This document shows, in pieces, positions 2,269-53,483 of a DNA stretch of 56,924 nucleotides (position 1 is the first letter of the stretch; each line of letters opens with the position of its first letter). The translations under genes and the position numbers were made by a program. Source of the DNA: Paludibacter sp. (GTDB lineage: Bacteria > Bacteroidota > Bacteroidia > Bacteroidales > Paludibacteraceae); the NCBI GenBank assembly GCA_037144275.1, contig JBAWXD010000001.1:1-56924 (forward strand). The letters are read 5' to 3'. The notes beneath the pieces were generated by a model. The model was not told the DNA's origin, ran no database searches, and saw only the letters and a program-made list of their open reading frames with translations.

Positions 2269-2316
2269 GCTGTTTTATAAATTGTCGGGCTGAACTTAGA
2301 GTTGTTGCGAAACTTA

Positions 2317-2349: not shown

Positions 2350-2493
2350 GATTAGAATGAAATCATAGTTGAATCATGTCAATGTATTGAGGAAAAAAGA
2401 TCAATTATATCAGCAAAATAAAATAACTCCGAAATAAAACAGCCTGCTTAAAAATAAATTAACGCAAAATGATAGAATGTAAAAATGATTTTG

Positions 2494-2501
2494 TAGTTTT
2501 G
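2494..2501 (+). promoter_or_regulatory. Bacteroidota sigma-A -7 element upstream of the R-M gene
   Basis: TAGTTTTG fits TAnnTTTG, about 50 nt before the ATG at 2550. Confidence 0.5.
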
Positions 2502-2549
2502 TAACTTATAATCTTTAACTATAGATCACCGACTACAAAGCAATATAGC

Positions 2550-38238: not shown

Positions 38239-40398
38239 TTATTCTTCTTCTTTTTTAGTTGCTTCGTATTCTTTAAGCAATTTATCCTGAATATCCATAG
38301 GAACAAGTTCATAGCTTGCAAATTTCATACTGAATGAAGCACGTCCACCTGTAAGTGAGCTCAGCGTGGTGGAATAACTGCCTAATTCTTTCAACGGAAT
38401 TTTTGCTGACAGTTTTTCGTAACCTTTTTCACTTTCCATGCCCATAATAATTGCTCTACGACCTTGTAAATCACTCATTATATCGCCAAGGCGGTCGGAA
38501 GGAGTCTGAACAACCACATCGTAGATTGGCTCAAGCAATTTTGGTCCGGCATCTTTAAAGGCTTGTGAAAATGCATGACGTCCGGCAAGACGGAAGGAAA
38601 TTTCATTGGAATCAACCGGGTGCATTTTTCCGTCGTACACTATTACACGCACATCGCGAGCATACGAACCCGTAAGCGGACCTTGCTCAATACGGTCCAT
38701 AATTCCTTTCAGAATGGCCGGAACAAAACGTGCATCGATAGAACCACCTACAATACTATTAATAAGTACTAATTTACCACCCCAATCGAGGTCAATAACC
38801 TGTGTGTCACGGTTACTTATTTTGAATTCCTGACCATTAAAACGGAACATCTCCGGAGCCGGCATTCCATCATAATAAGGTTCAATAATCATATGAACTT
38901 CACCAAACTGACCCGAACCACCCGATTGTTTTTTGTGACGATAATCGGCACGTGCATTCTTGGTAATGGTTTCACGATAGGGGATTTTTGGTTCCTTATA
39001 TTCAATCATGATTTTATCGTTGTGCTCAACACGCCATTTTAGGGTTCGTAGATGGAATTCTCCCTGACCGTATAAAATTGTTTGTTTCAATTCTTTCGAT
39101 TGTTCTACTACCCAGGTTGGATCTTCTTCGTGCATGCGTGTAAGAATTTCGCTGAGTTTCTCTTCGTCCGATTCTGAAACAGCTCTGATAGCACGGCGAT
39201 ATTTTGGTTCGGGGTATTTGATTTCTTTGAAATCATAATCACAGCCTTTCACATTCAGCGTGTTTCCCGTACGGGTATCTTTCAGTTTTACAGTTGCGCC
39301 AATATCTCCGGCTACAATTTCGTCAACTTTGGTACGGATTTGTCCTGCAACAGAGAAAATCTGACTGACACGCTCTTTCGAACTGCGGTCAACATTCACC
39401 AAATCGTCGCCTTCTTTCAGTTTTCCACTCATTACCTTGAAGTAGGAAACTTCACCGATATGTGGTTCAACACTGGTTTTAAATACATAAATACTGGTAG
39501 GTCCGGTTGCATCGGGAGCGATTTTCACGCCGTCTGCAGTTTGTGGTTGTTCGGTCTGATTCACGCTTGGAGAAACGTTTCCAACAAATTCCATCAAACG
39601 ACGTACGCACATATCTTTTCCGGCACAAACGCAGAAAACAGGGAACATATCGCGGTGAATCAATCCTTTGCGAATTCCTATACGCAATTCATCTTCGGTA
39701 AGTGAACCCTGGTCAAAGAATTTTTCCATAAGTTCTTCATCATGCTCGGCAGCAGCTTCAACCAACACATTGTGCAGGTTTTGTGCTTTTTCAATCTGGT
39801 CGGCAGGAATTTCCAACACGTCAGGAACACCACCTTCGGGTTTCCAACGGTATAATTTCATTTTCAGAACGTCGACTACCGCATTGAATTGTGGACCAAC
39901 ATTCACCGGATATTGAATCTGAACAATTTTGCTGCCATAATTTTCTTTCAGTTGCTCCAATGTTTTGTCAAAATCAGCTTTTTCCTGATCGAGATGATTG
40001 GTAACAAAAATAACCGGTTTTTTAAATTTTTCGGTATAACGGAAGTGGTTGTTGGTTCCAACTTCTACGCCATATTGCGTGTTGAGGAGGATAAGTGCGG
40101 TATCGGTAACGTTGAGTGAAGTTACCACACCACCGATAAAATCGTCGGAACCGGGGCAATCGATAAAATTAAGTTTTTTCTCCATCCATTCAGTCTGGAT
40201 AATGGTTGAAAAAACGGAATAACCGTACTCTTTTTCAACCGGAAAATAATCTGATACAGTGTTTTGAGCGGCAACTGTGCCTCTACGTTTTATAACTCCA
40301 CTCTCGTAAAGCATAGCTTCCACAAGAGTGGTTTTCCCCGAGCCGGAACTACCCAGCAATGAAATGTTTTTAATTTCATTCGATTGATATACTTTCAT
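38239..40398 (-). CDS. fusA2: Elongation factor G paralogue EF-G2
   Basis: Atypical G1 GSSGSGKTTL, DCPG, GEFHL, PYRETI, HKKQSGGSGQFG, HPVDSNE; domain IV insert (PAPEMFRFNGQEFKISNRDTQ). Confidence 0.92.
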   Translation of the reverse strand: MKVYQSNEIKNISLLGSSGSGKTTLVEAMLYESGVIKRRGTVAAQNTVSDYFPVEKEYGYSVFSTIIQTEWMEKKLNFIDCPGSDDFIGGVVTSLNVTDTALILLNTQYGVEVGTNNHFRYTEKFKKPVIFVTNHLDQEKADFDKTLEQLKENYGSKIVQIQYPVNVGPQFNAVVDVLKMKLYRWKPEGGVPDVLEIPADQIEKAQNLHNVLVEAAAEHDEELMEKFFDQGSLTEDELRIGIRKGLIHRDMFPVFCVCAGKDMCVRRLMEFVGNVSPSVNQTEQPQTADGVKIAPDATGPTSIYVFKTSVEPHIGEVSYFKVMSGKLKEGDDLVNVDRSSKERVSQIFSVAGQIRTKVDEIVAGDIGATVKLKDTRTGNTLNVKGCDYDFKEIKYPEPKYRRAIRAVSESDEEKLSEILTRMHEEDPTWVVEQSKELKQTILYGQGEFHLRTLKWRVEHNDKIMIEYKEPKIPYRETITKNARADYRHKKQSGGSGQFGEVHMIIEPYYDGMPAPEMFRFNGQEFKISNRDTQVIDLDWGGKLVLINSIVGGSIDARFVPAILKGIMDRIEQGPLTGSYARDVRVIVYDGKMHPVDSNEISFRLAGRHAFSQAFKDAGPKLLEPIYDVVVQTPSDRLGDIMSDLQGRRAIIMGMESEKGYEKLSAKIPLKELGSYSTTLSSLTGGRASFSMKFASYELVPMDIQDKLLKEYEATKKEEE

Positions 40399-40467
40399 AT
40401 TGTATTAAAATATAAAGGATTGATACTAAAAAAATACTTGTTTTTTAATTTAAAAATCGAATGGCAA

Positions 40468-40494
40468 TGTATGAAATTTGTATGAAATTTGTAT
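40468..40494. repeat. 11-bp tandem direct repeat upstream of fusA2
   Basis: TGTATGAAATT TGTATGAAATT TGTAT. Confidence 0.7.
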
Positions 40495-40504
40495 TTCAGT
40501 ATTG

Positions 40505-40520
40505 TATGTTTTACAACATG
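40505..40520. promoter_or_regulatory. Candidate Cur (BT4338-type CRP-like) binding site upstream of fusA2
   Basis: TATGTT-T-TA-C-AACATG versus consensus TATGTTnTAnAACATA (1 mismatch). Confidence 0.65.
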
Positions 40521-40622
40521 AATTTAAGAAGATAAAAACCAATGGAGGAGTGAACTTACAATAGCAAGTTTGTGTGAAATTACATCAAAAGAGTAGATTT
40601 GATAATCTTCAATGCCCTTTCA

Positions 40623-41861
40623 TCATTTTGGACTTATTAGTTTCTTTGTTTCTTTCCAGAATTCCGGAGATTTTCTGAAAAAATAGAGGCTAGTTAACAA
40701 GCAGATTATCAGCATTACAGCAAATATGGCGAAACTGTTTTCGGAAGTGAAATGTGCAGTGAGTGAGAATAAAAGTGTACCGAGAAGCACAAAAACGAAA
40801 GTAACCAGATTGAGATAAGCTATCATATCACCCAGTTTACGACCGAGATTTGCATTTTGAAGCATCGACATACAGGGAATCTGAAACAATCCGCCCATAA
40901 ATGCAGTAGCAAAAACAGTGAAAACGTAAACACCAAAACTCAATGGTATAAATGTGAGTATGGCAAATGACAGGCTCATTCCCAAAATACCAATCAAAAT
41001 AAGCCCTTTTTTGACATCCTTACCTGAGATTTTACCTGCCGACCACGTACCGAGTGCAATACCAATTGCTGCACATGCCATAACGATACCTGTAGTGCTG
41101 TTTGAAGCCTGATAAACGTGTTTGGTGTGAATGACCAGATTCATTTGCAACATGCCGCCAATAAGCCAGAAAGCCGATGCTCCCAATACTGCGCTGTTCA
41201 CATTGGGATGTTGCCTTGCAAAGCGGTATGAGTTCACGAGAAAGCGCATTGGATTGAGCGTTTCGGCTTCTTCTGTATTTTCTGGAAGTTCAGTTGCGCG
41301 AATGCTTCGGGTTACAATATAACCCAACACAGCTAATCCGATTAATATTCCAAAAACCAACCATTGATTGTAAGCATCGGAAACAAACGAAGCGCAAACA
41401 GAACCAATCAGAATGCCCAAAAAGGCCATCATTTCGAATACGCCGCTACCAAACGAAACTCCTTCAGCACCCCCAATGTCGCGAATGAGGCTGTATTTCG
41501 AGGGTGAATATAAACAGCTCAGAATTCCCATAATCAGCACGGTGAAAACTGCCAGCATTACCCATTGATAATAAAATGCCGCACAAGCAAAGGCCAAAAC
41601 CGGAATCTCGAGCAGTTTACATATTCGGAAAACTTTCTTTTTGGAATAAATGACGGCAAAATGACCACCAAGCGGCGAAAGAAACAAATAAGGAACAATC
41701 AACGAAGCCGATACAAGTGAAATAAGCTGCGATTGCGATAGCCATGCAGGCTTTGACCATGCCACCGCAATAAAGATAATGCAGTTTTTCAGGAAATTAT
41801 CGTTGAAAATCCCCAGAAAGTTACTGACAAACAGCGGTGTCCATTTGCTGCGGAAAAACAT
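40623..41861 (-). CDS. MFS transporter, LplT/Aas-associated lysophospholipid transporter-like
   Basis: FLGIFNDNFLKN, PYLFLSP..G, KLLEI, YSPSKYS: the MFS domain of Aas-type fusions, here stand-alone. Confidence 0.75.
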   Translation of the reverse strand: MFFRSKWTPLFVSNFLGIFNDNFLKNCIIFIAVAWSKPAWLSQSQLISLVSASLIVPYLFLSPLGGHFAVIYSKKKVFRICKLLEIPVLAFACAAFYYQWVMLAVFTVLIMGILSCLYSPSKYSLIRDIGGAEGVSFGSGVFEMMAFLGILIGSVCASFVSDAYNQWLVFGILIGLAVLGYIVTRSIRATELPENTEEAETLNPMRFLVNSYRFARQHPNVNSAVLGASAFWLIGGMLQMNLVIHTKHVYQASNSTTGIVMACAAIGIALGTWSAGKISGKDVKKGLILIGILGMSLSFAILTFIPLSFGVYVFTVFATAFMGGLFQIPCMSMLQNANLGRKLGDMIAYLNLVTFVFVLLGTLLFSLTAHFTSENSFAIFAVMLIICLLTSLYFFRKSPEFWKETKKLISPK

Positions 41862-41957: not shown

Positions 41958-43685
41958 TCAGTATTTTCTCAAGGAGAAAATAAAACTCAATCCGCCACCC
42001 GGAACGGTTTTAGCCGAAATAGTTCCTTTATGGAAAATAATTGCATTTTTCACAATAGCCAATCCTAAACCAGTTCCACCAACTTTGCGACTACGACCTT
42101 TATCCACACGATAAAAACGTTCGAATAGGCGGGCTAAATGTTCTTCGGAAACTCCTACACCATTATCACTGAAAGAGAAATAGACAAAATCTTCATCTTC
42201 GCGGTAACAGTTAATATCTATAGTTATTTTCTCACCTGCATAATTCAACGCATTATCCAACAGGTTTCTGAAAATGGAATATATGAGCGACCGGTTTCCC
42301 TGAATGCTTGTTTCGGATTGAAAGTTGGTCAAAATCGTACATTCTTTTTGTTCGATTTCCAGATGAACATCGTTCAACACATCCTGGATTACCTCCGAAA
42401 TATTGCAGGGTTCTTTATCAAACAACCGTTTGGCTTCGTCCATTTTATTCAGTGTGGAAATATCCTGAAGCAAATCACGTAAACGTTGTGCTTGCTGAAA
42501 CGAGCGCTCTACAAAGAACCGTTGACGCTCGGCGTCCATTTCAGGATTCTCCAGAATGCTTTCCATGTAGCCCAGAATGCTGCTTACCGGAGTTTTCAAC
42601 TCGTGCGAAATGTTTTGTGTCAGGTGTCTTTTAAGTTCGTTTTCGTGTTCCTGAACCGATATGTCGTTAATAGAAATTTCAAATGTTTTATCCTGAAAAA
42701 CAATACACTGTACGGCAAATACCCGACCACCTTTTTCAATGGTGAGCTTTTTACGTTTCATTTCATTGTTTTGCAGACTTTGGTCAATGAACTGATTTAT
42801 TTCTGAAAATTCGGGCAGACTGAAAATTTGATTGGAACTTTCGCTTTGCTGGTCGGAAAGAATATTACTGTACTGAATAAAGTGAGTATTTGCCAGAATT
42901 TCTTTTTTCTCAGTTGAAAAAATAGCCAGTCCTTCCTGTGAGATTTGCAGGTGTTTAATCAGTTTTTCACGCTCTTTGTTCAGTTGTTCCTTGGTTTCCA
43001 ACTGTAATTTATACAGTTTCACTATGTTTTTGCTGATTTCACCAAGCTCGTCGTTTGGGAATTCAATATCCGTATTGAAATACTCTTCCTTCTCTGCTTT
43101 TTGAATGAAAATACGCAGACGATCTATTGATTTGGTGAAATTTCGGGAAATAAAGTATAAAACAAAACCTGCAGCAATCAACACTAAAAGCATGAAATAC
43201 AGGAAGAAAGTATTGGCTTTCAGTGTGTTAATAAGACTCACATTGTATGGCAAAGCACTCCGCACATATCCTTTGGGAAAACGGTGGGCGAGATAATAAT
43301 AATCTTTTCCGGTAGAAACCGAATGGCGGATGGCTTTTCCGTTCGCATTATAATTGGCTAACTGAATTTCAGGGCGGTCGGCATGATTCTCCAGTTTCGT
43401 TCCTTTTTTTACAAACGAATCGAAGGTTACATTGCCGATGGAATCAATTACAGTTACACGCAAGGTACTGTCAGGGAATAATTTGACATAATCTTCCAGC
43501 ATTTCCCAGTTTGGATTACGCTCTTCAATAAACCGGTTGATACTGAAGTTATAAGTCGATAATTGCTGATCGAGTTGATCGGTACGGAATTCCTTTTCCC
43601 GTTCATACTGGAAGAAGCTGATAATGGCAAACATCAAAAAGAAGATGCCAAAGAAATAGAGAAAAACGCGGCGATTTAAAGTCAT
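41958..43685 (-). CDS. phoR: Sensor histidine kinase PhoR-like
   Basis: Two TM helices, ENHADRPEI cache motif, H-box SHELKTP, NLLDNA, FERFYRVDKGRSR..GGTGLGLAIVK. Confidence 0.85.
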   Translation of the reverse strand: MTLNRRVFLYFFGIFFLMFAIISFFQYEREKEFRTDQLDQQLSTYNFSINRFIEERNPNWEMLEDYVKLFPDSTLRVTVIDSIGNVTFDSFVKKGTKLENHADRPEIQLANYNANGKAIRHSVSTGKDYYYLAHRFPKGYVRSALPYNVSLINTLKANTFFLYFMLLVLIAAGFVLYFISRNFTKSIDRLRIFIQKAEKEEYFNTDIEFPNDELGEISKNIVKLYKLQLETKEQLNKEREKLIKHLQISQEGLAIFSTEKKEILANTHFIQYSNILSDQQSESSNQIFSLPEFSEINQFIDQSLQNNEMKRKKLTIEKGGRVFAVQCIVFQDKTFEISINDISVQEHENELKRHLTQNISHELKTPVSSILGYMESILENPEMDAERQRFFVERSFQQAQRLRDLLQDISTLNKMDEAKRLFDKEPCNISEVIQDVLNDVHLEIEQKECTILTNFQSETSIQGNRSLIYSIFRNLLDNALNYAGEKITIDINCYREDEDFVYFSFSDNGVGVSEEHLARLFERFYRVDKGRSRKVGGTGLGLAIVKNAIIFHKGTISAKTVPGGGLSFIFSLRKY

Positions 43686-43687
43686 AA

Positions 43688-43778
43688 GCCCCTAACCCCT
43701 AAAGGGGAATTTTAGTTAGTATTACTTGTTTATTTTTTTTTGCAACCACACCAAAGCCCTCTTTAAGGGGTTGGGGGC
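43688..43778. repeat. Inverted doublet of family A REP-like repeats
   Basis: GCCCCTAACCCCTAAAGGGGAAT (43688-43710) and AAAGCCCTCTTTAAGGGGTTGGGGGC (43753-43778). Confidence 0.8.
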
Positions 43779-43782
43779 ATTT

Positions 43783-44472
43783 TTATTCTTCAAAACAATA
43801 TCCATATCCCAATCGGGTGACGATGTTTTTTCCGTACTGTCCAATTTTTTTGCGCATACGGGTAATATTCACATCGATGGTTCGGTCGAGAACAATTACC
43901 TCGTCGCTCCATACACGGGTAAGCATTTCGTCGCGCGAGAAAACCCGGTTTTTGTTTTCCAGAAAAAGTTTAAGTATTTCGAACTCCTTTTTCGTAAACG
44001 GAACTTCAACTCCCTCAAGAATTACTTTTTTGTTTCCCAAATCCATTTCAAGTGATTCGTAAGTTAGTTTTTGGGGCGCTGTTTCAATTGTTTTTTTATT
44101 ATCCACCCGTCGGATTACTGCTTTGACTCGTGCCAATACTTCACGAATTGAAAAGGGTTTGGAAATATAATCGTCGGCACCAATATTAAAACCAGTCAGT
44201 CGGTCGGTTTCGGAATCTTTTGCAGTAAGGAAAATAACCGGAATAGAGGCTGTTTTAGGGTTTTCGCTCAATATGCGGGCCATTTTAAATCCGGATATTT
44301 CACCCATCATCACATCAAGCAGCATTAAGTTATAGACCGTTAGGTCTTTTTTCATCGCTTCTTCAGCCGAATAAGCCACATCTACTTGATAACCTTCGGT
44401 CTCAAGATTGAACTGCAAAATTTCACACAAATCTTCTTCGTCGTCGACGACTAGAATACGATACGAACTCAT
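43783..44472 (-). CDS. phoB: OmpR/PhoB-family response regulator
   Basis: ILVVDDE, LLDVMM, FLTAK, GADDYISKPFS, winged-helix RTIDVNITRMRKK..GYGY; pst/phoU context. Confidence 0.85.
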   Translation of the reverse strand: MSSYRILVVDDEEDLCEILQFNLETEGYQVDVAYSAEEAMKKDLTVYNLMLLDVMMGEISGFKMARILSENPKTASIPVIFLTAKDSETDRLTGFNIGADDYISKPFSIREVLARVKAVIRRVDNKKTIETAPQKLTYESLEMDLGNKKVILEGVEVPFTKKEFEILKLFLENKNRVFSRDEMLTRVWSDEVIVLDRTIDVNITRMRKKIGQYGKNIVTRLGYGYCFEE

Positions 44473-44479
44473 AATAGTA

Positions 44480-44507
44480 ATAGTTATTAGTTGACAGTTT
44501 ATAGATT
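44480..44507 (-). repeat. 7-bp-period array upstream of the phoB start
   Basis: + strand ATAGTTA TTAGTTG ACAGTTT ATAGATT. Confidence 0.45.
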
Positions 44508-44519
44508 CAAAAACTTATA

Positions 44520-44576
44520 CAAAGTAACAAATCTCTTATTTCGGTTTTGTGTAATAACTGTTACAAAGATATGACA
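44520..44576 (-). promoter_or_regulatory. Pho-box promoter of phoB-phoR
   Basis: Minus-strand units TGTCATA (44576), TGTAACA (44565), TTACACA (44554), CGAAATA (44543); -7 TTACTTTG starts 16 nt after the last unit start (44527). Confidence 0.7.
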
Positions 44577-44606
44577 ATTTTTGAAATCTGTTGTAAATCA
44601 ACAATA

Positions 44607-44651
44607 AAATCACAAAAGAGGCAAATCCTCGATTTGCCTCTTTTGTGATTT
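44607..44651 (-). terminator. Terminator after phoU
   Basis: Perfect 21-bp inverted repeat AAATCACAAAAGAGGCAAATC-ctc-GATTTGCCTCTTTTGTGATTT. Confidence 0.8.
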
Positions 44652-44664
44652 AGGTATAAATTAG

Positions 44665-45330
44665 CTATTCTCTTGGAGAATGTTTCAATACTTTAGCATC
44701 AATGTAGAAGAAAATTTCTTCAGCAATATTGGCACAATGGTCACCAATACGTTCTAATCTTCTGAAAGTGCTGAATAAATGTAGACATTCAAAAGCTCTA
44801 TCAGGATTTTTCTGTATGTAATCAGCCACAATTCTAGCTGCACTTTTATTAATTTCATCCACCTGATAATCTTCACTGAAAATGGCTGATGCAATGTCAG
44901 ATTTCTCATTTTCAAAAGCTTCAAGTCCTTGGGTAAGCATTTTAGTTACCTGATCAATCATGAGTCTTAAGTTCGTTTCAGTTATGATTTCAGCATCTAA
45001 TATTACCGAAGGATTTGCAAGCAAAACACCTGATATCCCATATGCAAAGTCGGCGATACGTTCCAAATTAGAGTTAATCTTCAGTACTGCCAGTACAAAG
45101 CGCAAATCTACTGCAACTGGCTGATAAAGAGCAATAATATTTTCACATAACCGGTCAATTTTAAGTTCATAAGCATCCACTTTTTTCTCACGCATCGAAA
45201 CTTTCTTTGCCAACTCTTTGTCAAAAGTCAAAATAGCTTCTCCCGAATTTGAAACCTGAGAAATTACCAATTTCCACATATCAGTAACATCCTGTTTAAG
45301 AGCTACTAATTCTTGTTCTAAATGTATCAT
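44665..45330 (-). CDS. phoU: Phosphate signalling complex protein PhoU
   Basis: YQPVAVDLR, LERIAD, LERIGDHCANIAE. Confidence 0.95.
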   Translation of the reverse strand: MIHLEQELVALKQDVTDMWKLVISQVSNSGEAILTFDKELAKKVSMREKKVDAYELKIDRLCENIIALYQPVAVDLRFVLAVLKINSNLERIADFAYGISGVLLANPSVILDAEIITETNLRLMIDQVTKMLTQGLEAFENEKSDIASAIFSEDYQVDEINKSAARIVADYIQKNPDRAFECLHLFSTFRRLERIGDHCANIAEEIFFYIDAKVLKHSPRE

Positions 45331-45345
45331 ATATATAAGTCTTAA

Positions 45346-45519
45346 TTATTTTAGTAAGCTTTCTTCTTTTTCTTTAAGTTTTGTGTCGTCTTCAATTTCT
45401 GATTGATTCATAAAATTAACAACATCTTCTTTATCTTTCACATTTCGTTTAATCAGATAAAAAATTAATATTGCAGCGCAGACTAAAACAATAATTAAAA
45501 TAAACCAGTTAGTTTCCAT
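45346..45519 (-). CDS. 57-aa single-pass membrane peptide between pstB and phoU (below the ORF-track cut-off)
   Basis: METNWFILIIVLVCAAILIFYLIKRNVKDKEDVVNFMNQSEIEDDTKLKEKEESLLK*. ATG preceded by an A-rich tract; TM helix followed by a basic KR; stop 15 nt before the phoU ATG. Confidence 0.7.
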   Translation of the reverse strand: METNWFILIIVLVCAAILIFYLIKRNVKDKEDVVNFMNQSEIEDDTKLKEKEESLLK

Positions 45520-45626
45520 TGTATTTATATTTAAATGGTTAATATAATTTTAAGATAAATAGTCCAAATGTCGCTTTTCTTACTTGTTCTCAAAAAACAC
45601 TTTTCCATATTCATTCTCAACTGAAG

Positions 45627-45654
45627 AAAGTCCCCATTTGCCGATTTAGGGGGC
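45627..45654 (-). repeat. Family A REP-like repeat right after the pstB stop
   Basis: Reverse complement GCCCCCTAAATCGGCAAATGGGGACTTT; closely related to 41930-41957. Confidence 0.7.
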
Positions 45655-45655
45655 T

Positions 45656-46408
45656 TTATCCAAACCTACCGGTAACATAATTTTGAGTTGAATGTTCTTT
45701 TGGATTTGTAAAGATAGTGGTTGTTTTGTCAAACTCTATCAACTCACCCAAATAAAAATAAGCCGTTTTATCACTTACACGCGATGCTTGCTGCATATTG
45801 TGCGTTACAATAATAATGGTATAATCTTTTTTCAATTCATGAATCAGGTCTTCAATTTTGGCAGTAGAAATCGGGTCGAGTGCAGAAGCTGGTTCGTCCA
45901 TAAGCACCACTTTGGGTGATATAGCCAACGCACGCGCAATGCAAAGCCGTTGTTGCTGACCGCCCGAAAGTGCAAAAGCTGATTTATTCAGTTTGTCCTT
46001 CACTTCGTCCCACAGTGCCGCCGATTTGATTGACTCAATCACACGCTCTTCGACAAAGGTTTTATCTTTAATTCCATTCACCCGAAGACCATAAGCCACA
46101 TTTTCGAAAATAGATTTTGGAAACGGATTCGGTTTTTGAAACACCATACCCACTTCTTTGCGCAGTTCGTCTACATGTACGCTTGGAGCATAAATATCTT
46201 CGCCATCAATCAACACCGAACCTGTCATCCGGGTTCCCGGAATCAAATCGTTCATCCTGTTAAGCAGGCGGAGGAAAGTTGATTTTCCACAACCGGAAGG
46301 TCCGATCAGTGCCACCACTTCGTTTTTATTCACTTCAAAGTTGATGTTCTTCAGTGCGTGAAACTCACTGTAATAAAAATCAACGTTTTTTGCATCAATA
46401 GTCAGCAT
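45656..46408 (-). CDS. pstB: Phosphate ABC transporter ATPase
   Basis: [37 protein letters not shown], terminal GRFG. Confidence 0.97.
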
Positions 46409-46413
46409 CTTTT

Positions 46414-46476
46414 TATGTCTAATGTCTGAAGACTAATGTCAAAAGTATTTTGTCCTTTAACCTTTGTCTTTAGACC
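46414..46476. repeat. Nine-unit 7-bp-period array filling the pstA-pstB spacer
   Basis: TATGTCT AATGTCT GAAGACT AATGTCA AAAGTAT TTTGTCC TTTAACC TTTGTCT TTAGACC. Confidence 0.75.
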
Positions 46477-46480
46477 GATT

Positions 46481-47368
46481 TTAATTTGTTTTTACTTTTT
46501 TCGAGAAATAATTCCGTAAGAAATTGGCTAATAAATTTACCAATAACACAATCACAATTAATACCAATGCTGTTCCGTAAGCAATGCCCCGTGAGGCTTC
46601 AATATTGGTTCCACTCGTTGAAATGACATACAGGTGATATGGTAATGCCATTACCTGATTAAAAATACTCGTTGGCAGTTTCGGTAAAAAATAAGCTGCC
46701 ACCGTAAAGAGAATAGGAGCAGTTTCGCCTGACACCCGGCCAATGGACAAAATCAGTCCGGTAATGATATTCGGAAAAGCCATCGGCAAAATTACTTTTT
46801 GAATGGTTTGCAATTTGGTTGCACCTAATGCCAGACTTCCTTCACGATACGATTGTTCAATTGCCTTTAACGATTCTTCAGTTGTTCTGATCACCAAAGG
46901 TAATGAAAGTAATCCTAAGGTCAGCGAACCAGCCAGAATGGAATCACCAAATTTCATGGTGTTTACAAATAAGGCCATCCCGAAAAGACCGAAAACAACT
47001 GATGGCACGCCGCTCAGGTTATTGGTCATAATGCGAATAAATGTTGCTATTTTGCTTCCAGCGGCATATTCATTCATATAAATGCCGGACATAATACCAA
47101 TAGGAAAACTAAAGATACTACTTCCGACAACTAAACACATTGTTCCGACAATGGCAGGAAAAATTCCTCCTTTGGTCATTCCGTCTTCAGGTGCTTTGGT
47201 CAAAAAGTCCCAACTGATTACGCCAATTCCACGTATTACTATAAATCCGAGAATTATGAATAAAATAGCAACCACCGAATAGCTCATCAACTTGAAAATA
47301 GTGAATGCAATGGCTTGCGATCTACGCTTTTTTCGGTCGGTATTTTTGGCTTGTATTACTGGTGTCAT
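46481..47368 (-). CDS. pstA: Phosphate ABC transporter permease PstA
   Basis: GGIFPAIVGT, GVPSVVFGLFG, REGSLALGAT, RVSGETAP. Confidence 0.95.
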   Translation of the reverse strand: MTPVIQAKNTDRKKRRSQAIAFTIFKLMSYSVVAILFIILGFIVIRGIGVISWDFLTKAPEDGMTKGGIFPAIVGTMCLVVGSSIFSFPIGIMSGIYMNEYAAGSKIATFIRIMTNNLSGVPSVVFGLFGMALFVNTMKFGDSILAGSLTLGLLSLPLVIRTTEESLKAIEQSYREGSLALGATKLQTIQKVILPMAFPNIITGLILSIGRVSGETAPILFTVAAYFLPKLPTSIFNQVMALPYHLYVISTSGTNIEASRGIAYGTALVLIVIVLLVNLLANFLRNYFSKKVKTN

Positions 47369-47372
47369 TTTT

Positions 47373-47421
47373 TAAGTCTTATGTCTAATGTCAAACGACT
47401 TTTGTCTTTTGACCTTTGAAT
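47373..47421. repeat. Seven-unit 7-bp-period array filling the pstC-pstA spacer
   Basis: TAAGTCT TATGTCT AATGTCA AACGACT TTTGTCT TTTGACC TTTGAAT; homologous to 46414-46476. Confidence 0.75.
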
Positions 47422-48608
47422 TATTGATATTTCTTTTTTCCTATAAATTCAATACTGATGCTGATTATCATGGTGATAATAAACAGAATAACACCCAACA
47501 TAAACAAAGCCTGATAGTGGCCGCCACCTGCAGCAGTTTCACCAAGTTCGGCTGCAATAGTAGCCGGAATGGTTCGAACGGGTTCGAGTAAAGTATGGGG
47601 AATTACAGCTGCATTACCTGTTACCATCAATACTGCCATTGTTTCACCTATTGCACGACCAATTCCGAGGACGGCAGCCGAAGTGATTCCGGATTTTGAG
47701 TAAGGAATAATTACTTTATAAATGGTTTGCCAGTGTGTTGCTCCCAAAGCCAGACTGGCTTCCTTCATGGCACGTGGCACGGTGCGCATGGCATCTTCGG
47801 CCACGGTAATAATTGTAGGCAAGGCCATGATTCCCAGTACTACGCTTCCTGCCAAAGCAGTTTCACCAACAGGCAGATTGAATAATCTTTGTAGAAACGG
47901 AACAATAATAACCAGTCCGAAGAAACCATAAACTACTGAAGGAATTCCTGCTAATAATTCAATTATGGGTTTCAGAATATTGCGCACTTTCATAGAAGCA
48001 ATTTCTGCCAGATAAACTGCCACGGCAATACCGAAAGGCAATGAAAGTAAAATAGCTCCCAAGCTCACCCACAATGTCCCAAGTAAAAGTGGTAATAAAC
48101 CATATTGAGGCGAAGGTGAAGCGGTAGGATACCATTCTTTACCACCGAAAAAGTCGCCTGGGTGAAGGGTCTCGTGCTTTAATAATGTACCGTTAAAGTT
48201 CTTTTTGATATAAGATGTTGGAAGAAACAGGATGATTCCGGGATGTTTTGCAGTCAGTTCACTGGCTTTAGCAGGTATGTTTTCGAAGTTAGAACCAAGT
48301 TCTGCTTCGGTATAATATTTTGTCAGGTCGCTCAATCGAACCAGTTCAATGGGCTCTTTTTTTCCACCCACTTCGTTCCAGTTACTGATTTTGCCATCAA
48401 AAATTTCTTTGATTTCATAAGATGTTAAATGCTTAACCGGATTAGTTTTGTTTAATGCGAGTTCATAGCCTTCTTCAATTACCGGACTGGTAAATAAGCC
48501 GGAAGCTTCTTTAAACAGAAAGATAATAATCAGCAAAATGGTAATACTGGTTACGCTTCCACTAATGAGTAATGCACCTTCAACCAGCTTTTCAAAAAAA
48601 CGTTTCAC
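47421..48608 (-). CDS. pstC: Phosphate ABC transporter permease PstC with a PstS-like periplasmic insert (GTG start)
   Basis: ELLAGIPSVVYG, EASLALGAT, GRAIGETMAV; periplasmic segment similar to PstS. Confidence 0.95.
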   Translation of the reverse strand: MKRFFEKLVEGALLISGSVTSITILLIIIFLFKEASGLFTSPVIEEGYELALNKTNPVKHLTSYEIKEIFDGKISNWNEVGGKKEPIELVRLSDLTKYYTEAELGSNFENIPAKASELTAKHPGIILFLPTSYIKKNFNGTLLKHETLHPGDFFGGKEWYPTASPSPQYGLLPLLLGTLWVSLGAILLSLPFGIAVAVYLAEIASMKVRNILKPIIELLAGIPSVVYGFFGLVIIVPFLQRLFNLPVGETALAGSVVLGIMALPTIITVAEDAMRTVPRAMKEASLALGATHWQTIYKVIIPYSKSGITSAAVLGIGRAIGETMAVLMVTGNAAVIPHTLLEPVRTIPATIAAELGETAAGGGHYQALFMLGVILFIITMIISISIEFIGKKKYQ

Positions 48609-48632
48609 TCTTTTTTTGTTTTAAATTCAGTA

Positions 48633-48689
48633 CAAAGAAACGGTAATCGTATTAAATCTGTATTACGAAGATATTACAAAGATGTTACA
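48633..48689 (-). promoter_or_regulatory. Pho-box promoter of pstCAB-phoU
   Basis: Minus-strand units TGTAACA (48689), TGTAATA (48678), CGTAATA (48667), TTTAATA (48656); -7 TTTCTTTG starts at 48640 (16 nt). Confidence 0.75.
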
Positions 48690-48776
48690 TTAGTTGTATC
48701 TTAGTTGCCTCTATTTTTTCTTATATATATTGTATAGAATTCACTGAAATACAGGTCTTTTAGAGAATAAATTATT

Positions 48777-48833
48777 TGTAACAAAAATGTAACAGGTTTG
48801 ACAAAACACTGTAATCTAATCGAAGTTCCTTTG
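48777..48833 (+). promoter_or_regulatory. Pho-box promoter of porin-pstS
   Basis: TGTAACA (48777), TGTAACA (48788), TGACAAA (48799), TGTAATC (48810); -7 TTCCTTTG at 48826 (16 nt). Confidence 0.75.
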
Positions 48834-48894
48834 CAGCGTGAAAATGAAACAAAACTAAAAACAAATTCAAATTCAACAATTAAATTAAAACAAA

Positions 48895-50271
48895 ATGAAA
48901 TTAAAAAGTTTAGCAATTATCGCATTGGGTCTGATTTGTTCGACCGTTGCTTTCTCTCAAGAAAAAGTGGACTCATTGGATGTTCATGAACAGCGTATCT
49001 CAAACCTGGAAGATGGTTTGATTCAACTTAAAAAACTGAAATTCAGTGGATATGTTCAATCTGAATGGCAGTTATCGGACATTGATGTGAATGGTAAAGC
49101 TTCACAGGATATGAAAGTTGGTGGTGGGGCTAATGCAGCTGAAAACCCATCAGTTGGAAGTGTTACCCCAGCAGGTTCTTCTTTTAGTCGTTTTGGCGTA
49201 CGTCGCGGTCGTTTAAAAGCAACTTATTCCGATTTCGGTTGTACTGGTGTTGTTTACATTGACGCTACAGAAAAAGGTGTTATACTAAAAGAAGCCTATG
49301 CAAGTGCATTAGATCCTTGGGCTGGAGTTGTAACGCTTAAAGGTGGTATTTTTAATCGTCCTTTCGGATATGAGATTGAGTATTCTTCTTCTTCTCGCGA
49401 AAGTCCTGAACGCAGTCGTGTAATTCAGACTTTATTCCCAAGCGAACGTGATTTAGGTGGTATGATTACGTTGCAAGCTCCTAAAGGTACTCCATTAAGT
49501 GTTTTAAAATTGGACTTGGGTTTATTAGCCGGTAATGCAATTGGTACTGATACTAAAAGCCAGAAAGATTTAATTGCACACTTAACTTATGGTAATTCAA
49601 CCGGAGATATTAAATACGGAATTGGTGCTTCATATTATGGTGGTGTTATTTTCCAACCAACAAATGTAGTGTATACTATGGCAAACAACGTTTTTGTTGC
49701 AGATAGTACTAAAGGAAATAAAAACGGTTATGCAAAACGTCAATATATAGGATTTGATGGTCAATTTAGTATGGCAACTGTTGCAGGTTTGACAAATATT
49801 CGTGCTGAATATATTTTCGGTACACAACCAGGAAGTAGTTCAAGTACAAGTAGTCCAAGTTTAGATGTGAAACCTACAGGTTATGGAACTGCTCCAACAG
49901 CCACAGTTACTGCTGATACCTACCTACGTAAATTTGTTGGTGGATATGTACAATTATCACAGGATATAGCTGATACAAAACATACCTTGACAGTAAAATA
50001 TGACTGGTATGATCCAAATACAGATGTATCAGGAGATAACATTGGAACACCTAAAGCTGGAACTAATCAAATTGCAACTTCAAAAGCTGATATCGCTTAT
50101 TCAACACTTGGAATTGGGTATTTGTATCGTTTGAACAATAATATTAAATTTATGGTTTACTATGATATGCCTGTAAACGAAACTTCTGCAAAATTATTGA
50201 CAGCCGGATCGGACTACAGAACTAAATTAGCAGCAAACTTGTTGACAGTTCGGATGCAGGTTAAATTCTAA
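48895..50271 (+). CDS. Phosphate-selective (OprO/OprP-like) porin
   Basis: Signal peptide, short coiled coil, KFSGYVQ, FGVRRGRLK Arg ladder, RPFGYE..ERS, terminal QVKF; directly upstream of pstS. Confidence 0.75.
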   Translation: MKLKSLAIIALGLICSTVAFSQEKVDSLDVHEQRISNLEDGLIQLKKLKFSGYVQSEWQLSDIDVNGKASQDMKVGGGANAAENPSVGSVTPAGSSFSRFGVRRGRLKATYSDFGCTGVVYIDATEKGVILKEAYASALDPWAGVVTLKGGIFNRPFGYEIEYSSSSRESPERSRVIQTLFPSERDLGGMITLQAPKGTPLSVLKLDLGLLAGNAIGTDTKSQKDLIAHLTYGNSTGDIKYGIGASYYGGVIFQPTNVVYTMANNVFVADSTKGNKNGYAKRQYIGFDGQFSMATVAGLTNIRAEYIFGTQPGSSSSTSSPSLDVKPTGYGTAPTATVTADTYLRKFVGGYVQLSQDIADTKHTLTVKYDWYDPNTDVSGDNIGTPKAGTNQIATSKADIAYSTLGIGYLYRLNNNIKFMVYYDMPVNETSAKLLTAGSDYRTKLAANLLTVRMQVKF

Positions 50272-50293
50272 ACCACTAAGCTTTAAAGGGGAA
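50272..50293 (+). repeat. Degenerate family A repeat after the porin stop
   Basis: ACCACTAAGCTTTAAAGGGGAA. Confidence 0.5.
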
Positions 50294-50379
50294 TAAGAGG
50301 AAAAATAATTATAAATAACAAACAAATTTCGGGTTCGTTAGATGGCGTATCCGAAATAAATAAAATTAAAAAAAACAAA

Positions 50380-51192
50380 ATGAAAAAACTTATTTTATCG
50401 CTTATGATGGTTTGCTCAATTGCACCCTCATTTTATGCACAGAAAATTAAAGGAAGTGACACTGTATTGCCACTGGCTCAGAAAGAAGCGGAAGTTTATG
50501 GTAAGAAAACCGGTAAATCAGTAACCGTTATTGGTGGTGGTAGTGGGGTTGGTATTGCTGCTCTGCTCGAAGGTACAACTGAGATAGCTATGTCGTCACG
50601 CAAAATGAAATTCGACGAAAAAGCCAAATGTCAGGAAGCCGGTAAATCAATTGTTGAGAAAATCATAGCTTATGATGCATTAGCTATCATTGTAAATCCG
50701 GGAAACCCTGTAAGTAAATTAACACGTGCTCAATTAGACGGAATATTTACAGGTAAAATCACAAACTGGAAACAAGTAGGTGGTGAAGATTTGAAAATCA
50801 CACCTTATGCTCGTGAAACAAGCTCAGGTACTTACGATTTTATCAAAGAATATGTATTGTTGAACAAAAACTATATGAGTTCAATCTTAAGTATGCCCGC
50901 TACCGGAGCTATCGTTCAGTCGGTTAGCCAAACCAAAGGTGCAATCGGTTATGTAGGATTGGCTTATTTAAATAAATCAGTTAAAGCATTACACGTTTCA
51001 TTCGATGGTAAAAACTATATCGAACCAAATGAAGTAACGGCTAAAAACAAAACTTATCCAATTATTCGTCCATTGTTTTTCTACTACGAGAAATCAAAGG
51101 AAAAAAACTATTTAGCCCTTGTAAACTTCGTGCTTTCAGCCGAAGGTCAGGCAATTGTTGAAAAAGTGGGTTATGTGCCTTTAACAAAATAA
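50380..51192 (+). CDS. pstS: Phosphate-binding periplasmic protein
   Basis: IKGSDT, GGGSGVGI, AMSSR, RETSSGT, GAIGYVG, YPIIRPLFFY. Confidence 0.95.
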   Translation: MKKLILSLMMVCSIAPSFYAQKIKGSDTVLPLAQKEAEVYGKKTGKSVTVIGGGSGVGIAALLEGTTEIAMSSRKMKFDEKAKCQEAGKSIVEKIIAYDALAIIVNPGNPVSKLTRAQLDGIFTGKITNWKQVGGEDLKITPYARETSSGTYDFIKEYVLLNKNYMSSILSMPATGAIVQSVSQTKGAIGYVGLAYLNKSVKALHVSFDGKNYIEPNEVTAKNKTYPIIRPLFFYYEKSKEKNYLALVNFVLSAEGQAIVEKVGYVPLTK

Positions 51193-51220: not shown

Positions 51221-51225
51221 GTAAG

Positions 51226-51257
51226 AACCGCTATCGAAATTTCGATAGCGGTTTTTT
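51226..51257 (+). terminator. Intrinsic terminator after pstS
   Basis: AACCGCTATCGAAATTTCGATAGCGGTT palindrome followed by a T-run. Confidence 0.8.
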
Positions 51258-51271
51258 CTTTCTGCTTGATT

Positions 51272-51328
51272 TGTAACACTTTATTCACATCTCTGTTCTA
51301 ATGTTGCAATATTGTAGTAGTTACTTTG
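51272..51328 (+). promoter_or_regulatory. Pho-box promoter of the phosphoesterase-glycosyltransferase operon
   Basis: TGTAACA (51272), ATTCACA (51283), TGTTCTA (51294), TGCAATA (51305); -7 TTACTTTG at 51321 (16 nt). Confidence 0.65.
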
Positions 51329-51346
51329 CAAACAAAAACTACAACA

Positions 51347-52201
51347 ATGCACAATCAACAGTTTTATCCTACTATTGTTATATCCGATGTTCATTTAGGT
51401 ACTGAACACTCCAAAACCCGTGAACTGGCTGACTTTCTGAAAACCGTGAATTGTAATACGCTTATTCTGAATGGCGACATCATTGATGGCTGGCATTTAC
51501 AAAAAGGCGGTAAAGGCAAGTGGAAAAAAGAACATACCGATTTTTTCAAAATCATCATGAAAATGATGGAAAACCACAACACCCGGGTAATTTATATCCG
51601 TGGTAATCACGATGATTTTATTGATCATATTGCTCCCTTTGAATTTGCCAACATCTCTATCGAAAAAGATTACGTGCATGAGCGAAACGGCAAACGCTAT
51701 TATATCGTGCATGGTGATATTTTTGATAATATCACTTCTAATATGGTTTGGCTGGCAAAATTAGGCGATGTAGGCTATACCTTTCTGCTTTGGCTGAACC
51801 GTTTGTATAATATCTATCGTACCAAAAAGGGTTTACCTTATTTCTCACTTTCGCAAAGCATCAAGCAAAAAGTAAAATCAGCCGTTTCCTATGTCTCCAA
51901 TTACGAAAATGAACTGGTGGCACTGGCTCGCGTGAAACATGCCGATGGAATTATTTGCGGACACATTCATCAGCCTGCCGACAAAATAATTGACGGCATT
52001 CATTATCTGAATTCGGGTGATTGGGTTGAAACCATGTCGGCATTGCTCGAACATGAAGATGGAAGTTGGGAAGTGTATATGCATAATGAACACATGGCTG
52101 CACAACCAGAACCTATCGAAGTGATCCATCTGATTCAACCAATTCCTGCCAAAGGGATGAAAGTGGCTTTCTCAAATAATTTCTTTAATCCATTTTTCTA
52201 A
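51347..52201 (+). CDS. plcP: PlcP-like Mn-dependent phospholipase C (LpxH-like metallophosphoesterase)
   Basis: SDVHLG, GDIIDGW, GNHD, HGD.FD, WLAKLGD..Y, YFSLSQSIKQKVKSAV, CGHIH, YLNSGDWVE. Start placed at ATG 51347, downstream of the -7 element. Confidence 0.75.
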   Translation: MHNQQFYPTIVISDVHLGTEHSKTRELADFLKTVNCNTLILNGDIIDGWHLQKGGKGKWKKEHTDFFKIIMKMMENHNTRVIYIRGNHDDFIDHIAPFEFANISIEKDYVHERNGKRYYIVHGDIFDNITSNMVWLAKLGDVGYTFLLWLNRLYNIYRTKKGLPYFSLSQSIKQKVKSAVSYVSNYENELVALARVKHADGIICGHIHQPADKIIDGIHYLNSGDWVETMSALLEHEDGSWEVYMHNEHMAAQPEPIEVIHLIQPIPAKGMKVAFSNNFFNPFF

Positions 52202-52206
52202 ATACT

Positions 52207-53307
52207 ATGAAGTACTTATTTGTAGTTCAGGGCGAAGGTCGCGGGCATTTTACGCAAACCCTTAGCATGAAAGCTCTGCTGGAGCGAAACGGTCACGAAG
52301 TGGTGGCTGTGATGGTGGGTTGTAGTCCAAGACGTACCTTACCCGGTTTTTTTACCGAAAAAATAAATGCTGAACTGATTCGGTTTCAGAGTCCGAATTT
52401 TATGCCTACGCCCAAAGGCAAAGGTTCTCCCTTGTTAGTGAGCATTCTTTATAATTTGCTGTTATTGCCGGTTTATATTCAGAGTGTGTTTAAAATCCGA
52501 CAAACTATCCGCGAAACACAAGCCGATGTGGTGGTCAATTTCTATGAATTGTTATGCGGAATAACATACGGGATTTTTAACCCGGAAATACCTATGATGA
52601 ATGTGGCTCATCAGTATTATTTTTTGACTCCCTCTTTCGAATATACAGGCAACAATTCATTTCAGTTTAAGTTATTGAACTTCTACTCAAGACTTACAGC
52701 CTGGAATGCCACAAAAATCATGGCACTTTCATTCAGGGAAGAACCCACAATGCGTTATGGCAAAATAGTCCTTGTTCCACCGCTGCTCCGAAATGAAGTG
52801 TTGAATAAAAAACCGACTCAGGGTGATTATATTCATGGTTATCTTCTCAATAATGGGTATGTAGATGAGCTGATTAACTGGAGTATCGATCATATAAATG
52901 AGCAACTTCATTTCTTTTGGGATAATATTGATGAGGATGAAGAAATATTGATTCCTAATCTGACGATGCATCAACTCAGTGATACGGTATTTCTTAATTA
53001 TATGGCAGGTTGCAAGGCTTATGCTACTACCGGAGGATTTGAATCGGTATGTGAAGCTATATACCTGCAGAAACCGGTATTGATGGTTCCAACTCATATT
53101 GAGCAGGAATGTAATGTGATTGATGCCATGCGTTCAAGTGTTGGAGTTTCGGCGTTGGAATTTGATTTAAATCTATTACTTGATTTTGTTCCAACTTACA
53201 CGAAATCAATGGAATTCAGGTACTGGATACACACAGCTGAAGCTTTATTTGTGTATGAACTAACCAGGATTTATCCACAAAATTCAGAAATTTTGGTCGC
53301 TTTATAA
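52207..53307 (+). CDS. GT-B glycosyltransferase, MJ1255/VC2487-like (Glyco_trans_1_3 / GT28-like)
   Basis: VQGEGRGH N-terminal motif, VVNFYE, AHQY, TGGFESVCEA..LQKP.LMVP..EQ.CN. Confidence 0.8.
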   Translation: MKYLFVVQGEGRGHFTQTLSMKALLERNGHEVVAVMVGCSPRRTLPGFFTEKINAELIRFQSPNFMPTPKGKGSPLLVSILYNLLLLPVYIQSVFKIRQTIRETQADVVVNFYELLCGITYGIFNPEIPMMNVAHQYYFLTPSFEYTGNNSFQFKLLNFYSRLTAWNATKIMALSFREEPTMRYGKIVLVPPLLRNEVLNKKPTQGDYIHGYLLNNGYVDELINWSIDHINEQLHFFWDNIDEDEEILIPNLTMHQLSDTVFLNYMAGCKAYATTGGFESVCEAIYLQKPVLMVPTHIEQECNVIDAMRSSVGVSALEFDLNLLLDFVPTYTKSMEFRYWIHTAEALFVYELTRIYPQNSEILVAL

Positions 53308-53344
53308 AAATACTCCTTTAATTTTGTATATTGCGTTTTTGTGG

Positions 53345-53374
53345 AAAAAAGCTGCCTGTGAAGGTGGCTTTTTT
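53345..53374 (+). terminator. Intrinsic terminator
   Basis: AAAAAAGCTGCCT-gtga-AGGTGGCTTTTTT. Confidence 0.75.
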
Positions 53375-53483
53375 GTTGAATTGATATTCTCTATTATTAC
53401 TTTGTTTAGCGTTTTTTTTATTGAAATCGAATCATTAGTTGTAATTAGTACATTATTGATATTTGTATAATAATGTTTAAAAA

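Follow-up and report, generated by a model that had tools for sequence, protein, structure and literature searches.

A PlcP-family phosphoesterase paired with a PF13528 glycosyltransferase behind a predicted Pho promoter in Paludibacter and other Bacteroidota

What do the two genes do that directly follow pstS, the gene for the phosphate-binding protein, in Paludibacter sp. (GenBank assembly GCA_037144275.1)? The window analyzed here is the whole stretch of 56,924 nucleotides (nt) of contig JBAWXD010000001.1 (positions 1 to 56,924, forward strand), contig C1 of a 4.18-Mb genome in 431 contigs, and the two genes, which encode a phosphoesterase and a glycosyltransferase (GT), lie at 51347-53307. 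A first-pass annotation of this DNA had read them as a PlcP-like phospholipase and an MJ1255-type GT under Pho control, forming a candidate new route from phospholipid to glycolipid with diacylglycerol or ceramide as the acceptor, and our analysis partly supported this interpretation. We consider it probable that a PlcP-type phosphoesterase and a GT of family PF13528, induced together by PhoB, convert phospholipid via diacylglycerol to a phosphorus-free glycolipid. This kind of pathway is already known and is not a new route; it is the class of the partner GT that differs. The unit and its borders consist of the following features.

51223..51256, plus strand: intrinsic terminator after pstS (15-pair stem, 6 G-C pairs, T-run)
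51272..51311, plus strand: predicted PhoB site of plcP-GT, four 7-mers phased at 11 bp (TGTAACA cttt ATTCACA tctc TGTTCTA atgt TGCAATA)
51322..51328, plus strand: predicted -7 element TACTTTG, 10 nt past the last repeat of the PhoB site
51347..52201, plus strand: plcP-like gene, predicted phospholipase C (284 amino acids (aa) from ATG; PF00149, 57.1 bits)
52207..53307, plus strand: GT-B glycosyltransferase of PF13528 (Glyco_trans_1_3), predicted lipid GT (366 aa; 84.1 bits)
53345..53374, plus strand: terminator-like hairpin with a U-run 3' of the GT gene (-16.3 kcal/mol, z -3.9; 0 of 200 shuffles fold as well)

Both open reading frames (ORFs) that the first-pass annotation had described as a two-gene unit beside pstS were found in the window, separated by a gap of 5 nt (52202-52206), and all of the motifs it had quoted (GDIIDGW, WLA..GD..Y, SLS..K.KVK.AV, GDWVE and QGEGRGH) were present in the translations. 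The plcP start in the ORF list is TTG 51326; ATG 51347 suits the N-termini of the orthologues and lies downstream of the predicted -7 element. The terminator at 51223-51256 sets the unit apart from pstS, and with one terminator on either side plcP and the GT gene form a compact unit, for which we infer co-transcription. In two RNA-library runs from one lake sample, contigs were found on the porin-like gene upstream of pstS, on pstS, on parts of plcP and on the whole GT gene. The 18.7 kb upstream gave 8 and 5 short RNA records versus 134 DNA records from the same lake sample, and this sparseness argues against plain DNA carry-over. Note that such contigs show presence in an RNA library, nothing more, and that a lack of them, as on the TonB-dependent receptor gene, was given no weight.

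The phosphoesterase was compared with PlcP and with LpxH, the lipid A enzyme that shares its fold. Its translation carries the segments GDIIDGW, WLAKLGDVGY, SLSQSIKQKVKSAV and GDWVE. By BLASTP it was 38% identical to PlcP of Sinorhizobium meliloti (175 bits) and 41% identical to PlcP of Pseudomonas aeruginosa (193 bits), versus 26% (34 bits) for the LpxH candidate that this genome encodes on contig C123 and 21% (35 bits) for Escherichia coli LpxH; its bit scores are 5-6 times higher with tested PlcP than with either LpxH. The PlcP references were drawn from a protein search of a plasmid collection, which has chromosome-sized records. The 3.7-Mb S. meliloti record contains only one homologue of the phosphoesterase, the P. 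aeruginosa record has a GT4 gene directly after the PlcP reference, as in PA3219-PA3218, and the two references share 46% identity. The same figure is given for PA3219 and S. meliloti PlcP (Jones 2021), which supports the identity of both references as PlcP. The two records themselves, CP090106.1 (the 3.7-Mb S. meliloti record, labelled pSymB) and CP075839.1 (a P. aeruginosa 'plasmid' with a chromosomal region like that of PA3219-PA3218), are apparently mislabelled or chromosome-derived.

On the LpxH models TIGR01854 and NF003743 the phosphoesterase scored 27.9 and 37 bits, below the cut-offs of 190.35 and 134 bits, and the better LpxH candidate of the genome, on C123, scored 70.1 and 83.2 bits; Pfam reported general metallophosphoesterase families only. 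A quick maximum-likelihood tree with 90 rows separates the two LpxH rows from the other 88 with a Shimodaira-Hasegawa-like approximate likelihood ratio test (SH-aLRT) value of 98, and the two PlcP references lie within the larger group. The first-pass annotation had proposed such a phylogeny as a check of its PlcP-type, non-LpxH assignment; the phosphoesterase groups with the PlcP references and not with LpxH, and the assignment held. The binuclear metallophosphoesterase motif set is complete, as DxH, GDxxD, GNHD, HGD and GHxH are invariant or nearly so in 38 phosphoesterase sequences, in which conservation of the metal-site residues D14, H16, D44, D47, N87, H88, H122, H206 and H208 is complete or at least 90%. 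No signal peptide was found in the protein. Its AlphaFold model has a mean predicted local distance difference test (pLDDT) score of 85.9, PDB matches 1 to 25 are all LpxH structures, and the top match of its sequence profile is also an LpxH structure (5k8k, E 3e-13), so that the predicted fold resembles LpxH, also in the region that aligns with the LpxH helical lid. Public records label close homologues 'UDP-2,3-diacylglucosamine diphosphatase/LpxH', labels that are best read as mislabels. Judged by sequence, the phosphoesterase belongs to the PlcP family and not to LpxH, and phospholipase C activity is predicted for it.

The GT scored 84.1 bits on PF13528 against a gathering cut-off of 25, with residues 1-328 aligned to positions 1-318 of the 322-position model, and no other PF13528 gene occurs in the genome. 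Its sole NCBIfam match was TIGR00661 (MJ1255/VC2487), at 70.7 bits over residues 2-304 versus a cut-off of 195.9. The GT is therefore related to MJ1255 and VC2487 but no member by the NCBI rule, and the name 'MJ1255-type' gives way to PF13528, although JGI names its homologues 'TIGR00661 family'. PF13528 also occurs in B. thetaiotaomicron, M. jannaschii and M. acetivorans among 14 control genomes. The translation contains the QGEGRGH motif, and none of the GT4 domains PF13439, PF00534 and PF13692 was found in it at E ≤ 0.01, whereas the partner of P. aeruginosa PlcP carries all three; the earlier statement that the partner is of a GT-B family other than Agt was thus correct.

The fold model of the GT reached a pLDDT of 91.5, and its best Foldseek matches were GT1 enzymes (E about 1e-13). 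In structural alignment (VIA), YojK (Z 25.3), MurG (Z 24.1) and the yeast sterol glucosyltransferase UGT51 (Z 23.9) led over 298-329 residues at 9-14% identity, with plant steroid glycosyltransferases also among the tied top matches. All of these top matches are GT-B enzymes with lipophilic acceptors, and GT1 and GT28 rows tied within 1 Z unit, so the two classes are not separable for this GT. A profile of the GT matched YjiC and UGT109A1 (E about 5e-6) within the C-terminal nucleotide-sugar motif, and a GFE...EQ..N motif is invariant. PF04101 (Glyco_tran_28_C) was not reported for the GT; it is on 37-79% of the members of look-alike ESM Atlas clusters and on some paralogues, and an ESM Atlas search with the GT returned its own PF13528 clusters only. 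Single-sequence searches of PDB sequences yielded nothing useful. Taken together, the GT is a GT-B enzyme with a GT1/GT28-like predicted fold, and not a GT4. Enzymes of the GT1/GT28 class invert the anomeric configuration and GT4 enzymes retain it, so that this fold class predicts inversion and hence a beta linkage, unlike GT4 Agt. As the first-pass annotation had said of the GT, the literature searched held no product or tested member for PF13528, TIGR00661 or MJ1255 proteins, and the literature searched on PlcP in Bacteroidetes/Bacteroidota held no test of the partner GT.

We examined how widespread the pair is. Of 400 other genomes sampled in the phylum, 33 contain a strong orthologue of the GT (E ≤ 4e-53). 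In 19 of the 29 phylum loci fetched, PlcP is directly 5' of the GT on the same strand with gaps of -11 to 117 nt, and with G144, judged by coordinates, the adjacent pair is present in 20 of the 33 genomes. In a species-level genome collection, PlcP is directly upstream of the GT in 58 of 80 named loci, whose holders include Parabacteroides goldsteinii, P. faecis, P. chinchillae, Bacteroides intestinalis, B. cellulosilyticus, Odoribacter laneus and Phocaeicola coprocola; P. distasonis holds the pair as well. PlcP-like genes occur in 147 of 401 phylum genomes (E ≤ 1e-25). We hand-picked 40 further genomes across families, all of them without a strong orthologue of the studied GT, and in 29 the same-strand gene after PlcP was again a PF13528 gene; eight more genomes have the same arrangement by coordinates. 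This second PF13528 branch is only 17-22% identical to the studied GT. H14, D107, H135, Q136, G277-F278-E279, E299-Q300 and N303 are nevertheless kept in 45-51 of 51 sequences with the second branch included, and Q8, G11, G13, E114 and E283 are likewise retained in that branch.

In the PlcP tree, those PlcPs that have a PF13528 partner are located in two distinct regions. In addition, natural GT4-PlcP fusions make up 5 of the 150 best PlcP representatives. This wide and tight linkage across two PlcP clades and two PF13528 branches, together with the fusions, is strong evidence that the GT uses what PlcP makes. The studied copy is well preserved and typical of a variant that is widespread in Bacteroidota, the pathway itself being known. 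The five fusions (P0244, P0245, P0250, P0252 and P0272) are 564-663 aa long with an N-terminal GT4 and a C-terminal PlcP-like domain, and their PlcP domains group beside the clade of the studied PlcP. In two loci without an adjacent PlcP, L007 (G199) and L011 (G215), the GT orthologue has one in-frame TGA, and these copies may be decaying.

The predicted Pho control of the unit was assessed by comparison with the promoters of the neighboring phosphate genes, which are listed here with the genes that matter for the comparison.

41958..43685, minus strand: phoR sensor kinase (NF053855, 806.7 bits; cut-off 500)
43783..44472, minus strand: phoB, predicted regulator of the plcP-GT operon (NF053854, Bacteroides-type PhoB, 360.4 bits; cut-off 270)
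44520..44576, minus strand: Pho-box promoter of phoBR, training site (TGTCATA tctt TGTAACA gtta TTACACA aaac CGAAATA, 10 nt, TACTTTG)
48633..48689, minus strand: Pho-box promoter of pstCAB-phoU, training site (TGTAACA tctt TGTAATA tctt CGTAATA caga TTTAATA, 10 nt, TTCTTTG)
48777..48833, plus strand: Pho-box promoter of the porin-like gene and pstS, training site (TGTAACA aaaa TGTAACA ggtt TGACAAA acac TGTAATC, 10 nt, TCCTTTG)
50380..51192, plus strand: pstS phosphate-binding protein gene, directly 5' of the plcP-GT unit (TIGR02136, 244.8 bits; cut-off 206.6)

The plcP, porin-pstS, pstC and phoB promoters have one layout in common, namely four TGTAACA-type 7-mers in 11-bp phase, 10 nt and TnCTTTG; the Bacteroidetes -7 consensus is TAnnTTTG. 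The simple two-repeat pattern (TGTAACA N4 TGTAACA) was not above chance, either in the window (12 matches versus 9.3 expected) or in the whole genome (50 matches versus 44 for the reversed control), and was dropped as a test in favor of a matrix of the full four-repeat promoter. This matrix spans 57 nt and was trained on the porin, pstC and phoB promoters only, the plcP site being left out. When both strands of the 4.18-Mb genome were scanned, the plcP site at 51272 scored 22.1 bits and ranked third among the non-training sites, so that the Pho-type promoter described in the first-pass annotation is above chance in its full layout and not in its two-repeat form.

Other genomes gave a similar result. 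In 29 of the 58 named PlcP-bearing loci, the best matrix site of the whole locus of about 9 kb falls within 160 nt upstream of plcP, and it reaches at least 10 bits in 23 named loci; in most of the remaining loci plcP sits within a longer operon. The four-repeat layout is seen at plcP in P. distasonis and at pstS in P. goldsteinii and P. chinchillae; B. intestinalis has a form of it with two repeats. A Pho-box-type site upstream of plcP is thus kept in other genera, and we infer PhoB regulation of plcP-GT, which is well supported by this comparison. No description of a Bacteroidetes Pho box was found in the literature searched. The best non-training Pho-box-like site of the Paludibacter genome (32.7 bits), at C60:3975 on the minus strand, precedes the gene of a second, 227-aa response regulator of the OmpR/PhoB type, and a further one (21.8 bits) is at C60:1787 on the plus strand.

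The pathway that we propose would run as follows. PhoR and PhoB (41958-44472) would sense low phosphate, and phosphorylated PhoB would bind the four phased repeats at 51272-51311, which are separated by 10 nt from the -7 element and so take the place of a -33 element. Going by its homologues, the PlcP-like enzyme would act in the cytoplasm to remove the phosphate-bearing head group from glycerophospholipids, leaving diacylglycerol and a recyclable phosphate ester. The GT would then add a sugar from a nucleotide sugar to the diacylglycerol, with a beta linkage predicted from its fold class. Diacylglycerol is the reported product of characterized PlcP (Sebastian 2016; Jones 2021), and it is the economical general acceptor.

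Several points weigh against this pathway. The neighboring sugar-nucleotide genes conflict: a mannose-1-phosphate guanylyltransferase-like gene, of the GDP-mannose type, is present in 16 of the 80 named loci, whereas a nucleoside-diphosphate-sugar 6-dehydrogenase, of the UDP-glucose-dehydrogenase type, is present in 4 of them (in the order transferase-supply gene, dehydrogenase, plcP, GT), and since both types occur, the neighbors give an ambiguous indication of the sugar donor. The GT has no adjacent PlcP in 22 of the 80 named loci and in 13 of the 33 phylum genomes, so it can work without one. No RNA contig spans the plcP/GT junction in the two runs from the one lake sample, and the tree that separates PlcP from LpxH was obtained by a quick search alone. 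As for control, the plcP promoter fits the simple two-repeat Pho box weakly, with 3 mismatches, and the matrix was built on three sites, with other top matches (on C60, C73, C239 and C111) that are not clearly phosphate genes. The literature searched gives no measured activity, lipid or regulation for the pair or for any PF13528 enzyme. Dokdonia, the sole Bacteroidota strain with lipid data in one study (Sebastian 2016), had aminolipids and no reported glycolipid there, a comparison of lipids alone.

Three other explanations of the pair were weighed against these data. The phosphoesterase might be a second LpxH ('LpxH2') of lipid A synthesis and the GT a modifier of lipid A or lipopolysaccharide, in keeping with the LpxH names on close homologues in public records and the LpxH-like fold. 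This is highly improbable: besides the 27.9 and 37 bits on models with cut-offs of 190 and 134, the 5-6 times more bits to tested PlcP and the LpxH rows split off at SH-aLRT 98, the genome encodes a better LpxH candidate elsewhere (C123), and no lipid A gene is found in the annotated region of the window. Alternatively, the GT might act on some other lipophilic or soluble acceptor, such as a polyprenol-linked sugar, a pigment, a sterol-like lipid or a small metabolite, with the pair serving phosphate recovery or a change of the envelope and making no bulk surrogate lipid. The nearest solved folds do glycosylate macrolides, flavonoids, sterols and lipid I, the GT stands without PlcP in the 22 named loci mentioned above, and a GH65 kojibiose hydrolase-like gene (2 of 80 named loci) is found among the neighbors along with the mannose-1-phosphate guanylyltransferase-like gene (16 of 80). 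We regard this explanation as unlikely given the tight linkage to PlcP (-11 to 117 nt) in two PlcP clades and two PF13528 branches, a logic that the natural GT4-PlcP fusions also follow.

The ceramide acceptor raised in the first-pass annotation leaves the operon and its control as they are and changes only the substrate, in that PlcP would cut phosphosphingolipids and the GT would make a glycosphingolipid, like Sgt1/Sgt2 of Caulobacter. Ceramide is possible in this genome because it encodes a serine palmitoyltransferase (Spt) above the NCBI cut-off (NF047600, 676.9 bits versus 640); phosphate-starved Caulobacter has a Pho-dependent glycosphingolipid according to one report (Stankeviciute 2019), and a third PF13528 branch, in other classes, stands beside an Spt-like alpha-oxoamine synthase and a GNAT-like acyltransferase, so that the family may accept sphingoid-type lipids. 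However, Spt is above the cut-off in only 16 of 401 phylum genomes and, among the 20 adjacent-pair genomes, in G299 only. Six of the seven pair holders of the same class (G135, G175, G235, G247, G387 and G367) have no Spt match at E ≤ 1e-120, making ceramide unlikely as the general acceptor, and pair holders of other classes have Spt-like genes of about 485-505 bits, below the cut-off. Moreover, PlcP's reported product is diacylglycerol, and the Caulobacter glycosphingolipid enzymes Sgt1 and Sgt2 are described as GT4. The possibility of ceramide in this genome therefore stood, its general role did not, and we judge the ceramide reading as a whole improbable. The conversion of phospholipid to glycolipid via diacylglycerol remains our preferred reading of the pair.

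Further genes of the window and of related loci were recorded. Metagenome runs of freshwater and lakes contain near-identical DNA, with 11 studies represented. The complete Pho locus spans 41958-51192 and comprises phoR, phoB, phoU, pstB, pstA, pstC, the porin-like gene and pstS; phoU, pstB, pstA and pstC are on the minus strand, and the porin-like gene and pstS diverge from pstCAB-phoU on the plus strand. The porin-like gene (48895-50271, plus strand) follows the genome's best Pho box and is itself followed directly by pstS; it encodes an outer-membrane-like protein of 458 aa without a Pfam or NCBIfam match, which may be an undescribed phosphate-selective porin. On the other side, an EF-G2 gene (NF058620, 1370 bits) and an LplT-like lysophospholipid-transporter gene of the major facilitator superfamily adjoin phoR (38239-41861, minus strand). 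EF-G2 is also directly 5' of plcP-GT in Parabacteroides, in 7 of the 80 named loci (91-100% identity to the query) and in P. distasonis. Downstream of the operon, DNA and RNA-library contigs of the lake sample have loose ends and small indels at 53343-53377, the terminator after the GT gene, which suggests strain variants whose DNA beyond the operon differs.

Gene neighbors in the named loci also point to phosphate, in favor of the proposed pathway: ppk1 is within 4 kb in 11 of 80 and directly downstream in 10. In five Segatella/Prevotella loci without PlcP, PafA is upstream of the GT. These loci (L075, L081, L085, L086 and L088; Segatella copri and relatives) have no PlcP within 4 kb of the GT, which stands between PafA and a second gene of the alkaline phosphatase superfamily. 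The PF01663 enzymes flanking the GT there were considered as a replacement for PlcP and dropped, the upstream one being PafA (759 bits versus 650). The third PF13528 branch was observed in L163 (G003, 1546-5215) and L164 (G018, 1351-4861), where a canonical third-branch GT (232-264 bits) is clustered with the Spt-like synthase and the GNAT-like acyltransferase; judged by coordinates, the same cluster, conserved and on the same strand, occurs in G008, G264, G072, G076 and G092. The Spt-like synthase scores about 500-518 bits on the Spt model, below the cut-off, and the cluster looks like a set of genes for a glycosylated sphingoid or amino lipid.

How does the pair relate to known systems? PlcP-Agt renovation operons, the system of S. 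meliloti PlcP, are reported for SAR11 HTCC7211 and Phaeobacter MED193 (Sebastian 2016) and for P. aeruginosa PA3219-PA3218/PA0842 (Jones 2021). The studied unit resembles them in having a PlcP-family enzyme (38-41% identity) directly 5' of a GT, a Pho-box-type promoter and the predicted logic from phospholipid via diacylglycerol to glycolipid. It is unlike them in that the partner here is a GT1/GT28-like, predicted inverting PF13528 enzyme whereas Agt is a GT4, and in that four TGTAACA-type repeats with a Bacteroidetes -7 element stand here and CTGTCAT repeats with a -10 element there. In marine isolates, plcP has also been placed 5' of 'some putative glycosyltransferases' that are not Agt (types 3 and 5; Sebastian 2016), and one of these types is Pgt, the processive enzyme of Mesorhizobium loti (Devers 2011, as cited in Sebastian 2016). 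With plcP immediately 5' of a non-Agt GT, these types are like the studied unit; the text consulted of Sebastian 2016 contains no test of the type 3 and 5 GTs, and its supplement may already list the PF13528 family. Given these earlier non-Agt pairs and PF13528 as the usual PlcP partner across the phylum, the 'new route' of the first-pass annotation was an overstatement. With LpxH, the phosphoesterase shares the metallophosphoesterase fold with a helical lid and the metal-binding motifs, and it differs in its 21-26% identity, scores below the model cut-offs, separate clade and phosphate rather than lipid A gene context. MurG, UGT51 and YojK/YjiC, the best structural matches of the GT, are inverting GT-B enzymes with lipid-like acceptors, but at 9-14% identity, and the studied GT has its own conserved N-terminal Q-G-x-G-x-G-H motif as well as an H-Q motif. 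What is added here is the promoter architecture, the partner census and the fold class.

A broader proposal, which we put forward tentatively, is that PF13528 comprises lipid GTs throughout the phylum. Two PhoB-controlled branches that partner PlcP would make beta-glycosyl-diacylglycerol, a surrogate lipid under phosphate stress in lakes and in Parabacteroides and Bacteroides of the human gut, and the third branch, beside an Spt-like synthase, would glycosylate sphingoid-type lipids. Remodelling of phospholipid to glycolipid is a major phosphorus saving in bacteria and has been worked out in Proteobacteria with GT4 (Agt) or betaine-lipid enzymes, and in the Bacteroidota genomes examined here the usual gene after plcP is a GT of another fold class. 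The four-repeat Pho box provides a means to predict Pho regulons in Bacteroidales. Since the pair is held by cultured gut species (P. distasonis, P. goldsteinii, B. intestinalis and B. cellulosilyticus), the question is directly testable. Identifying the product of the GT would correct the widespread 'LpxH' label, would give PF13528 and TIGR00661-like proteins a first function, and would name the surrogate lipid of a phylum important in lakes, soils and the human gut.

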